Below, one piece after another: positions 1 to 3,000 of a stretch of 64,000 bases of DNA. A program made the position numbers. The stretch lies in NCBI RefSeq assembly GCF_045037415.1, contig NZ_CP173438.1; one strand, written 5' to 3'. The stretch comes from Escherichia coli (GTDB lineage: Bacteria; Pseudomonadota; Gammaproteobacteria; Enterobacterales; Enterobacteriaceae). Numbering within the stretch: the first letter of the stretch is position 1; each line of letters opens with the position of its first letter.

Positions 1-3000
1 CTTAGTAGAAAATACGTGTATAACACTTACTGAAATGCTTAGTAAAAATACTTAGTAAAATATGTGTATATAGTATCATACCGACATTCTCAATATCTTC
101 AGACTTCCATACATACTAGGTGTTAATTTTTCACTTTTACAGCCAGCATGGAGTTTTCTGTCCTAAAAACAGAGCAGATTTACTCTGGAATTATTTTTCT
201 GCCCCCGTACTTCAGGCCCCAGAAAAGACAATCCGAAGCAAACCGTTTGTCAACCTCCATATCATCTTTTACCCCCGGAAAGTGATCGCGTTTTACAACC
301 AGAATGACAGCCATACTGATTATGTCGTCTCCCGGCCCCTTCACATATAACATGCATGTCTGTCATTGCTTACTGCTCTACATGACAGGATTTCACATAC
401 AGGATGCGCAGTCAGTGTTTTTATCGCCACTATAACAGACAGATTACTGTCGCTTTTACTCTTCAGATTGTTAATCTGACCACAAGAACAGTCGAACAGT
501 ACAACGACACACCTAAGGAGGATATGATCCGTAGTTGATAGCATGTTTTATTTTATTATGAATAGATCAAGAAATAGTTCTTGATATGTCTGGAATAGTT
601 TTGTGAATAGTTCTAGAATATCCCCATAATCAGCTTTGAGGTGCTTGCAGGGTGATATTTTTATTGATTCCCTTGCATATACAACTGACATGTGATGGTG
701 AAAATCACCAGAAAAGAAAACGATTGAGGCGTAATCAGATGAAACAATATAAAGGCGGTTATAACGTGAATAGATATGACTGGAAAAATAAAACAACTGA
801 GCATTTATTGAATGATAATAATCTGGCAGATAATCACATACCTGAATGGATCAGAAAAAATGAAATTGCAGCATTCTGGTTCTGGTTAATTATGTCTCAT
901 ACAGTTCCCGAAAAACTTAAACTTAATAATGAATCTGAGTTCAATTCTGCCTTGAAGGGGGTGATCGTTATGAAGGATAACCCCATGACAATTATTCCTT
1001 CAAGTCATGAAACACGACTGAATGTTATAGGGAAATGGATTAATGCGTTAATCCTTTATGGGGAAGCAGATCGGATTATCTCAATAATGCATCAAAACTG
1101 GCTGGGACTCGAAAAGAGAAACGAAGCCAAATGGCTTAAAAAGAATACCGAACAACTGAAATGGGCATGGGAATATATTGATGCACGTATCTCACCCACA
1201 TATCTTTCCTGGTTTAATCCTGTAAATGATAACGAAAGATATATTGCCATTGTAGTTTTACTAAAAATGTTATTCCCCACAGACACACCCTGTTTACTGA
1301 CGCCAAAAGAATTTCACCTAGGATTCGCTGCAAAAGAAAGATTTTTCGACAAGATGCACAATGCATTCAGAAAACAGTTTATCGATGGAAAAAAAGATAA
1401 ACGGGTACAAATCAACGTAAAGATATCGCCATCCGCAAAAAGCGCTCTGGACAGACTGACCAGAGAGCGGAAAACAACACAGCAGGCTATTCTGGAACAA
1501 CTGATTCTGTACGGTAGACTGGATTAACTTTCACCACTTTCGCTCCTAGCGATTTTCTTCTTTTTGTAGTGTCTGCTTGCTGCGGGCATCAGGTATTTTT
1601 CCGTCATTTTGTTGCAGAACGCTTCAATGTAGTTAACCATTTTCTGGTGTGCTTTCACCTTTTCCTCCCCAGGGGACATTTTCAGATAAATGTCCTCCTT
1701 TTCCACAAGTGCATTTATAAACTCCTCTAAACATCCCTGGTTATAAAGCGACGTGAAAAACAACACATTCCCCAGTCTCTCCAGTAATTGCGATTTAACC
1801 CTGTATTGTTGTTTTCTGAGAATTGATTGTTTTCTAAAGCTCAGTCTTGTTAAAAGTTGTTCAAATCTTGGTTCAAATTTAAAAACAGATTTTAATCTTA
1901 GGGATTGATACTCCTGATAAAACAGTTCAAACGTCGGGGATGCTGACCGAAGAACAGGTCGGGCCACAGCCCGTGGACTAAATCCCATGACTGAGATTTC
2001 CTTTCCCTCCTCCTGCAAGTTCAGAGGCAGTTCAGCAATCCATGCGTCCAGCTTAGCTGAATCGCTCTCCTTGCTCAAAACCTCATACAAACTGCCCGTG
2101 AACGGTTGAGCCGATTTTGGGGTTGCTTCACCTTTTGACTGTCTGAATCCATCCACTTTTCTCCGGATACTACGCGGAATCAGCATAAAAGGCGGGGCAT
2201 TAAGAGATAAATGTTTACCAGTCATACGATGGCATTGTCCCACCTCGATCCAACAGGAAAATTTACTAACCGACCTTATCTTAAGCGCAATTATGTTAAG
2301 CAGGTACAGATAACGCACCGTATAACGATTAAAATGTTTCTCAGGATCAAACGATTCTGACCGTTCCCCTCTGTACACAAGTCCACTACGCTTCAGTATT
2401 CGCTGGGTATCTTTCCAGGCCTGACTTTTACAAATGCTCATTCGGCGTAGCGTATTAATCGACAGTGATGCCATCACTCCTCCCGAACTTTGTCACTCCA
2501 GATTTTTTCACGCCCATATTACCTGAATGATAAACCGGATTAGTGTGATCCGGTTCAGTGAAATCAACAGGATACCGGTATGTCATTCAGCCATTCTTCC
2601 CTCTCCGCACAAGTGAAATCATATCTGACGTTTCTTCCTGAAGAAATTCGCCAGAAAATCCTTGAACATCTCCACAGTGTTATTCATTACGAGCCCGTGA
2701 TTGGCATTATGGGTAAATCCGGCACCGGCAAAAGCAGCCTGTGTAATGCCATTTTTCAGTCCCGTATCTGCGCCACGCATCCCCTGAACGGCTGCACCCG
2801 CCAGGCTCATCGTCTTACCCTGCAACTCGGTGAACGCAGAATGACGCTGGTCGATCTGCCCGGCATTGGTGAAACACCGCAGCATGATCAGGAATACCGG
2901 ACACTTTATCGTCAGCTGCTACCGGAACTGGATCTGATTATCTGGATCCTGCGGGCAGATGAACGCGCGTATGCCGCCGACATTACCATGCATCAGTTTT

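Follow-up and report, generated by a model that had tools for sequence, protein, structure and literature searches.

Closest described systems

Enzymes resembling the Gp2-family HUH protein that concerns us here recognise tandem direct repeats beside their nick site. In plasmid pMV158, the HUH initiator (Rep) protein RepB binds three regular 11-bp direct repeats located tens of base pairs from a hairpin-borne nick site, and the origin adjoins the rep gene; in the common region of geminiviruses and other circular Rep-encoding single-stranded DNA (CRESS) viruses, the Rep gene reads away from lineage-specific iterons situated beside the invariant AT-rich motif TAATATTAC. We analysed, with these systems in view, a set of short direct repeats at the start of a 64,000-nucleotide stretch of Escherichia coli contig NZ_CP173438.1 (assembly GCF_045037415.1; hereafter the window, numbered from its first base). 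Positions 1–73 of the window are the right-hand third of a lineage-specific, AT-rich direct-repeat array. This array varies in copy number, occupies a fixed position between conserved motifs, is linked to a gene with an HUH Rep fold belonging to the 'inovirus Gp2 family' (YagK/YfjJ), and has counterparts made of other repeats at the equivalent place in other lineages. The array and the adjoining motif, designated M1, may constitute Rep-binding repeats next to a nick-type motif of the YagK/YfjJ/Gp2-like HUH protein, perhaps also acting as a divergent promoter region; we assign this reading a probability of roughly 0.4.

The locus resembles the geminivirus/CRESS common region in that its HUH Rep gene reads away from lineage-specific direct repeats lying beside an invariant AT-rich motif (TATATTACC in this case), with another gene set in divergent orientation. 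In contrast to that region, no stem-loop surrounds the motif, the units are heterogeneous, 12–14 nt long and up to 190 bp away from M1, and the element is an integrated bacterial island whose protein has no helicase domain and for which nicking is only proposed. Likewise, the resemblance to pMV158 concerns the proposed binding of tandem direct repeats close to a nick site by an HUH Rep; the units in E. coli are, however, irregular and devoid of a hairpin, and they lie approximately 1 kb from the gene. The best structural matches of the Gp2-family protein, which has the HUH fold, were parvovirus NS1 and adeno-associated virus (AAV) Rep. The binding elements of these proteins, (ACCA)n and (GAGC)4 beside the nick site, are short tandem direct repeats that also act as transcriptional control elements. 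In contrast to our locus, they belong to eukaryotic viruses with linear single-stranded DNA (ssDNA) and hairpin telomeres, and their tetranucleotide repeats bear no sequence likeness to the units described here.

Iterons of theta-replicating plasmids (pSC101, R6K, P1, F, RK2) share with the array the same-orientation direct repeats, the AT-richness, a 13-mer periodicity, the proximity to a replication-type gene and DnaA-box-like cores (three 8/9 matches to TTATNCACA, none perfect). Classical theta iterons were nevertheless rejected as a description: the units are of 12–14 nt rather than regular units of 17–22 bp, belong to two or three sequence types, are unphased and number three to seven per island. 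The linked protein, moreover, is an HUH nuclease (YagK_YfjJ_C/REP_ORF2-G2P) and not of the winged-helix RepA/pi/TrfA type, and no plasmid is known to replicate from the array region. A related framework is offered by a 2026 preprint of Ares-Arroyo et al. (10.64898/2026.01.13.699239), in which the origins of transfer (oriT) of 'iOriT' islands are defined upstream of recognised relaxase families, the YagK/YfjJ-type HUH family not being among them. Our locus is likewise a cis site without coding capacity, in an island of the integrase/AlpA type where anti-defence genes and defence cargo lie on opposite sides of it; it differs in that no helper element with a similar sequence was found in searches of plasmid, phage and metagenome DNA.

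Repeats at the window start and the complete array

The first 1,600 bases of the window are 100% identical to many E. coli chromosomes, and one of these, NZ_AP022525 (L001), was used as the local reference, window position 1 corresponding to L001 12001. The segment 1–73 reads CTTAGTAGAAAATAcGTGTATA ... CTTAGTAAAAATA CTTAGTAAAATAtGTGTATA and is composed of the following features, together with M1.

1–14, + strand: repeat copy 1, CTTAGTAGAAAATA, the 3' part of the 13-mer AAAACACTTAGTA that starts outside the window (L001 11995–12007)
8–21, + strand: GTGTAT-core unit GAAAATACGTGTAT, with an identical copy 34 bp upstream, beyond the window edge
22–32, + strand: degenerate AACAC-core unit AACACTTACTG
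38–50, + strand: repeat copy 2, CTTAGTAAAAATA, 13 nt
51–62, + strand: repeat copy 3, CTTAGTAAAATA, 12 nt
56–69, + strand: last GTGTAT-core unit TAAAATATGTGTAT, directly abutting M1 in every E. coli locus examined
69–86, + strand: motif M1, TATAGTATCATACCGACA, 18 nt, family consensus taTATAwTACCwATCCrACA, candidate nick or recognition site

Three iteron-like repeats had been reported here by the first-pass annotation, which was made from the window alone, and they were found again at the same positions, with CTTAGTA starting at 1, 38 and 51 and occurring once more in the 64 kb. The proposed extension of two copies also stood, (C/T)GTGTATA following directly 3' of copies 1 and 3. The 14-mer proposed as the common unit (CTTAGTARAAAATA) did not, as it fits copy 1 alone when one mismatch at most is allowed; the consensus is instead a gapped one, because the A-runs of copies 2 and 3 are 1–2 nt shorter. 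The string ATAYGTGTAT was present solely at 12–21 and 60–69 of the entire window (0.16 occurrences expected), and ATACGTGTAT, within the unit at 8–21, forms a short palindrome. The repeats are real and exceed what an AT-rich composition yields. Using 5,000 dinucleotide-preserving shuffles as the null for both the 73 bp and the full array, we counted 8 shared 7-mer pairs within the 73 bp against a shuffled mean of 1.03 (reached in 11 of 5,000 shuffles) and 15 shared 6-mer pairs against 3.27 (9 of 5,000), and no shuffle reached the repeat content of the full array at k = 6, 7 or 8.

The truncation at the window edge was borne out by extending the sequence upstream in L001, where the complete cluster spans positions 11897–12088. 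It comprises five GTGTAT cores in one orientation, spaced by 19, 51, 34 and 48 bp, a small palindrome and four units with an AACAC core; Tandem Repeats Finder described it as 5.2 copies of period 13 with the consensus AAAATACTTAGTA. The cluster is the local GC minimum (26–31%) and the least stable duplex within 4.5 kb. It is situated in a 1.7-kb gene-free stretch, approximately 1 kb upstream of the divergent Gp2-family gene, and this stretch is flanked by that gene, reading leftward at L001 10299–11030, and by a rightward open reading frame (ORF) at window 739–1527 with a ribbon-helix-helix (RHH)-like tail.

Between the Gp2-family gene and the array, about 250–900 bp upstream of window position 1 (L001 11100–11750), there are some 600 bp of non-coding DNA with an extreme strand asymmetry, the + strand being A+C-rich with an AT skew of up to +0.65 and a GC skew down to -0.58. 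Its conservation among islands is moderate, and loci of the JE86 and STEC308 types have, in place of about 300 bp, an insertion with a 176-aa ORF. A 57-aa ORF annotated inside it by the NCBI pipeline PGAP looks spurious.

Conservation among E. coli islands

Of 5,426 complete E. coli genomes, 1,861 yielded homologs, at 68–100% identity, to a 401-bp query around the cluster. L001 and 16 further loci (n = 17) were compared. The array is therefore not peculiar to one strain, the finding that would have spoken against the first-pass description: it is kept in all 17 homologous island loci at 68–100% identity. Homology among these loci extends as a single block between the 3' end of the Gp2-family gene and L001 12197–12215, where it breaks off. 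The array and the HUH gene are inherited together as this block, and the genes flanking it differ on both sides. The right-hand part of the block contains three further features.

66–128, + strand: most conserved non-coding block of the module, with no ORF and no conserved RNA structure
179–197, + strand: motif M2, TTTACTCTGGAATTATTTT, with the cross-genus core CTGGARTTAT at 185–194
197–215, no strand: right-hand end of the conserved module, where homology between islands ends and alternative cargo gene sets begin

Within the block, conservation is distributed unevenly. The 60 bp to the right of the array (window 69–128) had majority fractions of 0.95 and 0.90 in the 17-locus profile, equal to the gene; no small ORF was found in this conserved block, which is non-coding because indels between island forms break every frame. 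The cluster itself, measured between two invariant anchors, ranges from 141 to 244 bp and holds three to seven GTGTAT cores, the differences corresponding to whole-unit indels bounded by repeats, such as a 34-nt unit that is present or absent and deletions of 34 and 24 nt. The GTGTAT cores and their A-rich 5' flanks remain unchanged across loci differing by 15–30% elsewhere. In TA007, a diverged E. coli copy, the CTTAGTA units are lost and replaced by other units, the GTGTA cores are kept, and the hexamer at the start of M1 is TATAAT.

The homology break at 197–215 is sharp and comes right after the motif CTGGAATTATTTT. The cargo past it belongs to one of two sets, either the RHH-tailed ORF with a convergent ORF of 310–328 aa or a single convergent ORF of 376 or 407 aa, and in strain CFT073 an IS3 element sits at the break point (L002 3022–4237). 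This point between the control region and the GTPase gene resembles a hotspot of insertion or exchange. Approximately 250 bp to the right of the module in enterotoxigenic E. coli (ETEC) H10407, upstream of the RHH-class ORF of that strain, a published CRP chromatin immunoprecipitation sequencing table lists a weak 'ETEC specific' peak with the site CTTACTCCTGCTCACA at chromosome position 4,251,326 (L009 ~3067). It was the sole entry near the module in the H10407 tables, which do not cover H-NS.

The linked HUH gene and motif M1

The HUH gene is the sole gene always linked to the array; it lies just upstream of the window and was thus outside the view of the first-pass annotation. Its product matches the Pfam families YagK_YfjJ_C (5e-35) and REP_ORF2-G2P (1.5e-9) and carries the motifs IRVDLRF (RVDL), HYHVILLL (HYH) and YLVKYETK (Y-x-x-K), of which HYH and Y-x-x-K are conserved down to 26–36% identity; no sequence relative was present in the PDB. 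The median dN/dS among the E. coli copies was 0.34. These Pfam matches, the conserved motifs and the dN/dS make the product a credible HUH nuclease under selection. The 243-aa subfamily (here WP_029700721) has a Ser/Pro/Asp-rich insertion of about 36 residues (153–190) between the HUH core and the Tyr motif, predicted to be disordered (pLDDT <50) and absent in relatives of 189–222 aa. Our literature search yielded nothing describing the array, M1 or any function of the YagK/YfjJ family. A copy-number rise of an integrase and a Gp2-family gene, reported for E. coli Nissle gut isolates (bioRxiv 10.1101/364505), is the only hint of replication or transfer that was found, and it may concern another locus.

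Motif M1 accompanies this gene family widely and, on sequence grounds, belongs to the HUH gene. Of 20 lineages, 19 have it upstream of their YagK/YfjJ/Gp2-type HUH gene, including relatives whose proteins are only about 30% identical, with a constant orientation relative to the gene, a distance of 46–1,067 bp and the overall consensus taTATAtTACC.atcc.ac. Upstream of 21 relatives on viral contigs (29–40% identity), a loose M1 pattern was found on the expected strand in 13 cases versus 2 on the control strand. A metagenome scan for M1 followed by M2 returned four loci, all beside a Gp2-like–AlpA gene pair, arranged as AlpA <- Gp2-like on one side and a 320-aa ORF, WYL or DUF932 gene on the other, with no relaxase. 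M1 also occurs upstream of copies of the family gene on Leclercia and Salmonella plasmids, and in K-12 it is located 60 bp from yfjJ, within the spacer of the co-directional yfjI and yfjJ genes (so with no divergent operon), and 181 bp from yagK. BLAST with the module gave no homology in the K-12 islands, though the short motif occurs there. These K-12 copies, TATATTACCTATCAAGAT in CP4-57 (L014 7396–7547, yfjI–yfjJ spacer) and TATAATACCTATCCAACA in CP4-6 (L015 ~35130, upstream of yagK), provide a tractable system for work on the motif; at yagK, two direct repeats of ATACTG(GT)ATCnGAT are found in addition, some 80 bp from M1 on its gene side. Another short motif, GTATCAG, is found on the gene side of M1, 75–83 bp away in yagK-type loci versus 103–162 bp in the E. 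coli module. From this longer gap, we conclude that the 13-mer repeats are a lineage-specific insertion or expansion between two fixed motifs.

We considered a pairing of M1 with M2 as inverted repeats of an invertible switch and rejected it, as only 5–7 of 9 positions are complementary and both motifs keep the same orientation in all loci. The core TATATTAC within M1 is similar to NANTATTAC, the CRESS nonanucleotide, a likeness that may be taken only as a lead.

Arrays in other genera

The 243-aa subfamily is essentially confined to Escherichia. Relatives with 36–42% identity and preserved synteny were found in Providencia, Brenneria, Jinshanibacter and further assemblies, in the order RadC <- DUF932 <- antirestriction <- GTPase, intergenic region, Gp2-like -> AlpA -> defence cargo. 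In the intergenic region they have M1 (TATAwTAyCAwTCmrACA) and M2 (CTGGARTTAT) in common with E. coli. M2 lies downstream of M1 at a distance of 92–117 bp in six lineages; between the two motifs, nothing could be aligned across genera and no consensus base pairs were predicted. The E. coli cargo genes appear to have been inserted just after M2, since Providencia has no gene between M2 and the GTPase start.

In other lineages the position of the E. coli array is taken by direct repeats of other kinds, and arrays recur there in at least five independent lineages. On the gene side, Providencia has three copies of the 11-mer AAAACACATAG, which matches the E. coli 13-mer AAAACACTTAGTA at 11/13 positions; Jinshanibacter has 4.4 copies of a 36-bp unit at 98% identity (L035 3073–3229); locus L033 has three copies of the 8-mer ACTCTCTR; and locus L037 has six copies of the 9-bp unit CTGCTTAAC (3255–3320 in window orientation). 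The L037 and Jinshanibacter arrays suggest recent and recurrent expansion at an equivalent site. A species-representative scan for close relatives gave two near-identical loci only, from which no signal of co-variation between repeat and protein was obtainable.

Proposed function of the array

The findings agree in three respects with an HUH origin: the nuclease gene, with its metal-binding HUH motif and catalytic Tyr, is linked in cis; a short, family-wide candidate nick motif (M1) is placed next to it in fixed orientation; and lineage-specific direct repeats lie near that motif on its gene side. Since the flanking motifs always accompany the HUH gene, the array is more likely to be a binding or nicking site of this protein than one of the RHH-tailed protein or of the WYL regulator, the two candidate partners in the window. 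In the proposed mechanism, the YagK/YfjJ/Gp2-like protein would bind the repeats, with cores of GTGTAT or AAAAYAC type, as an oligomer; the array, being the least stable duplex nearby, would melt; and the enzyme would then act on the adjacent invariant TATAwTACCwATCCrACA. With the Rep gene reading in one direction and the putative establishment genes (GTPase, antirestriction, DUF932, RadC) in the other, the region may double as a divergent promoter or operator, as do Rep-binding sites in geminivirus and pMV158 systems. Repeat number and sequence would be free to drift, and the flanking motifs would be fixed.

Several observations weigh against this interpretation. M1 is located neither in a hairpin loop nor at a hairpin foot: fold z-scores were -0.72, 0.33 and 0.04, and neither covariation nor cross-genus pairing revealed a conserved hairpin around it. 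The array lies roughly 1 kb from the gene in E. coli, and no other part of the module is so poorly conserved (majority fraction 0.63–0.81 and 12–36% gaps in the 17-locus profile). Loci L039 and L040, close relatives of L037, hold one copy of the unit that L037 has six times, and no obvious array was seen at the equivalent place in Brenneria and L036; repeat number is, for these reasons, dispensable or merely modulatory. Two relatives with 40% identity (L017 and L023) have neither the array nor M1. The likeness of TATATTAC to NANTATTAC is a post hoc match of 6–8 nt in AT-rich DNA, and the -10-like hexamer within M1 varies at position 5 alone (TATAGT/TATAAT/TATATT), a pattern that also fits a promoter. 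Finally, the literature on YagK/YfjJ proteins consists of annotation lists, in which we found no reports of binding, nicking or replication.

As a kind of feature, repeat arrays that bind a protein close to a replication-type gene are ordinary; the setting of this one is uncharacterised, and the 73-bp repeat alone would be minor. It leads, however, to a conserved cis architecture, composed of a gene-side motif, a variable array and an 18-nt invariant motif, that is attached to a widespread and uncharacterised HUH nuclease family. About one third of the complete E. coli genomes carry this family, as do cryptic prophages of K-12 and islands of several other Enterobacterales. How such islands move and are maintained is poorly understood, and the protein and its DNA form a candidate pair that can be tested directly. 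A further-reaching reading, which we consider rather improbable, would be that the YagK/YfjJ proteins of integrase/AlpA islands are active HUH initiators with TATAwTACCwATCCrACA as their nick site in CP4-57, CP4-6 and the pathogenicity-island family of the window. The excised islands would then replicate by rolling circle or exit as ssDNA from a geminivirus-like origin, with the arrays serving as iterons that determine specificity and the antirestriction/DUF932/RadC operon as a leading region like that of plasmids. If correct, this would provide a replication or transfer mechanism for a large class of 'immobile' genomic islands and cryptic prophages.

Alternative explanations

The best-surviving alternative, which is possible if rather doubtful, is a regulated promoter in which M1 provides a -10 element (TATAGT at window 69–74) without a -35 and reads rightward into the GTPase–WYL–antirestriction operon, the repeats being operator or activator sites for the WYL/helix-turn-helix protein (autoregulation), for AlpA or for the HUH protein acting as a transcription factor only. 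The hexamer TATAGT/TATAAT/TATATT is retained across genera, with positions 1, 2 and 6 of the -10 element conserved in all lineages; in Providencia the site TAAACA-18-TATATT (9/12) precedes the GTPase start codon by about 215 nt, a gap free of genes; and the conserved M2 would fall in the 5' leader. The best -35 reached 0–4 of 6 positions everywhere, as would be the case for an activator-dependent promoter, and no TGn extended -10 was found. The poor -35 also counts against a promoter; furthermore, the scan gave no sigma-70-type call at M1 in E. coli, M1 in K-12-type loci would fire antisense into yfjI, and the next gene rightward is convergent in 7 of the 17 E. coli loci. A search for mapped transcription starts in strains carrying the module found none. 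As for the regulators, no AlpA gene is present within 12 kb to the left or right in this island, and no copy of the repeat motif lies near the WYL gene (window 3667–4347) or elsewhere in the 64 kb, characterised WYL regulators binding palindromes. The absence of the array from K-12 is uninformative on this point because the WYL regulator is only 43% identical to K-12 YfjR. A promoter and an HUH cis-site are compatible, since Rep-binding sites often double as operators. If the region were only a promoter, it would still be a control point between the defence-cargo and anti-restriction arms of the island.

A second alternative, unlikely but still a contender, is that the repeats have no sequence-specific function and represent slippage or recombination filler in AT-rich, acquired, H-NS-coated DNA, the flanking motifs alone being functional. 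This would account for the array being the most indel-rich part of the module, for gains and losses of units at repeat boundaries (the 34-nt and 24-nt deletions), for the swapped CTTAGTA units of TA007, for one versus six units in close relatives and for the GC content of 26–31%. It would not account for the invariance of the GTGTAT cores and their A-rich 5' flanks amid the surrounding divergence, for the recurrence of arrays at the same position in independent lineages or for the single orientation of all cores.

The remaining alternatives (an oriT, a DnaA-box cluster, an RNA and an RHH operator) are decidedly improbable even when taken together. An iOriT-type oriT, nicked by the HUH protein as a relaxase or by a helper relaxase and with the antirestriction, DUF932 and RadC genes as its leading region, is very improbable. 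Relaxases do share the HUH fold, and the position of the anti-restriction genes across the region from the defence cargo matches the pattern that the 2026 preprint describes around island oriTs. No recognised relaxase or type IV secretion system gene was adjacent in any locus, however, and searches of plasmid and phage DNA returned island fragments only. A likeness to the ColE1 nick region (GTGTATACTGG) falls in a unit missing from many islands, and a second match is specific to pBR322. The corresponding ColE1-type mimic (GTGTAT..CTGG..CTTA plus CAGAGCAGATT) was rejected, as ColE1 contains the first string but islands can do without the CTGG unit, and not even ColE1 contains the second string.

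A theta-type origin or DnaA-titrating site, formed by clustered DnaA boxes and AT-rich 13-mers, is highly unlikely. On the minus strand, three cores match TTATNCACA at 8/9 within 161 bp (about 0.16 expected) beside T-rich 13-mers; the mismatch, however, differs in each, no box is perfect, the most conserved core (ACGTGTAT) matches at 6/9 only, the last box is lost in UM146-type loci, and the motif was picked post hoc. The promoter of a small RNA or a structured leader at window ~81–200, as would fit the conserved ends and length (92–117 nt) and a terminator-like hairpin at 170–187 in this strain, is hardly credible given a fold z-score of 0.04, a covariation term of only -0.4 kcal/mol within E. 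coli, no pairs predicted across genera, a hairpin and T-run that are not conserved, and no relevant Rfam match at E <= 1 across L001 10000–14600. A structured RNA or Frpo-like ssDNA promoter was discarded on the same values (z of 0.04, -0.72 and 0.33; -0.4 kcal/mol; zero cross-genus pairs).

Just as implausible is an operator of the RHH-tailed protein encoded at window 739–1527. A protein-binding array, as suggested by the first-pass annotation, is a reasonable description, but the RHH protein named there does not hold as an obligatory partner. Its gene starts about 670 bp from the array, and its C-terminus is ribbon-helix-helix-like by eye; the ORF is, however, present in 10 of the 17 loci, the other seven keeping the array and having a convergent 376- or 407-aa gene instead, it is absent from all other genera, and its own direct repeats and promoter-like site lie at window 560–630. 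These repeats, RAATAGWT, are found four times in one orientation at window positions 560, 572, 593 and 605 (560–612), just upstream of the ORF, and overlap the promoter-like site TTGTGA-18-CATAAT at 601–630. They are probably the RHH-tailed protein's own operator, and the RAATAGWT pattern has 13 matches in the 64 kb.

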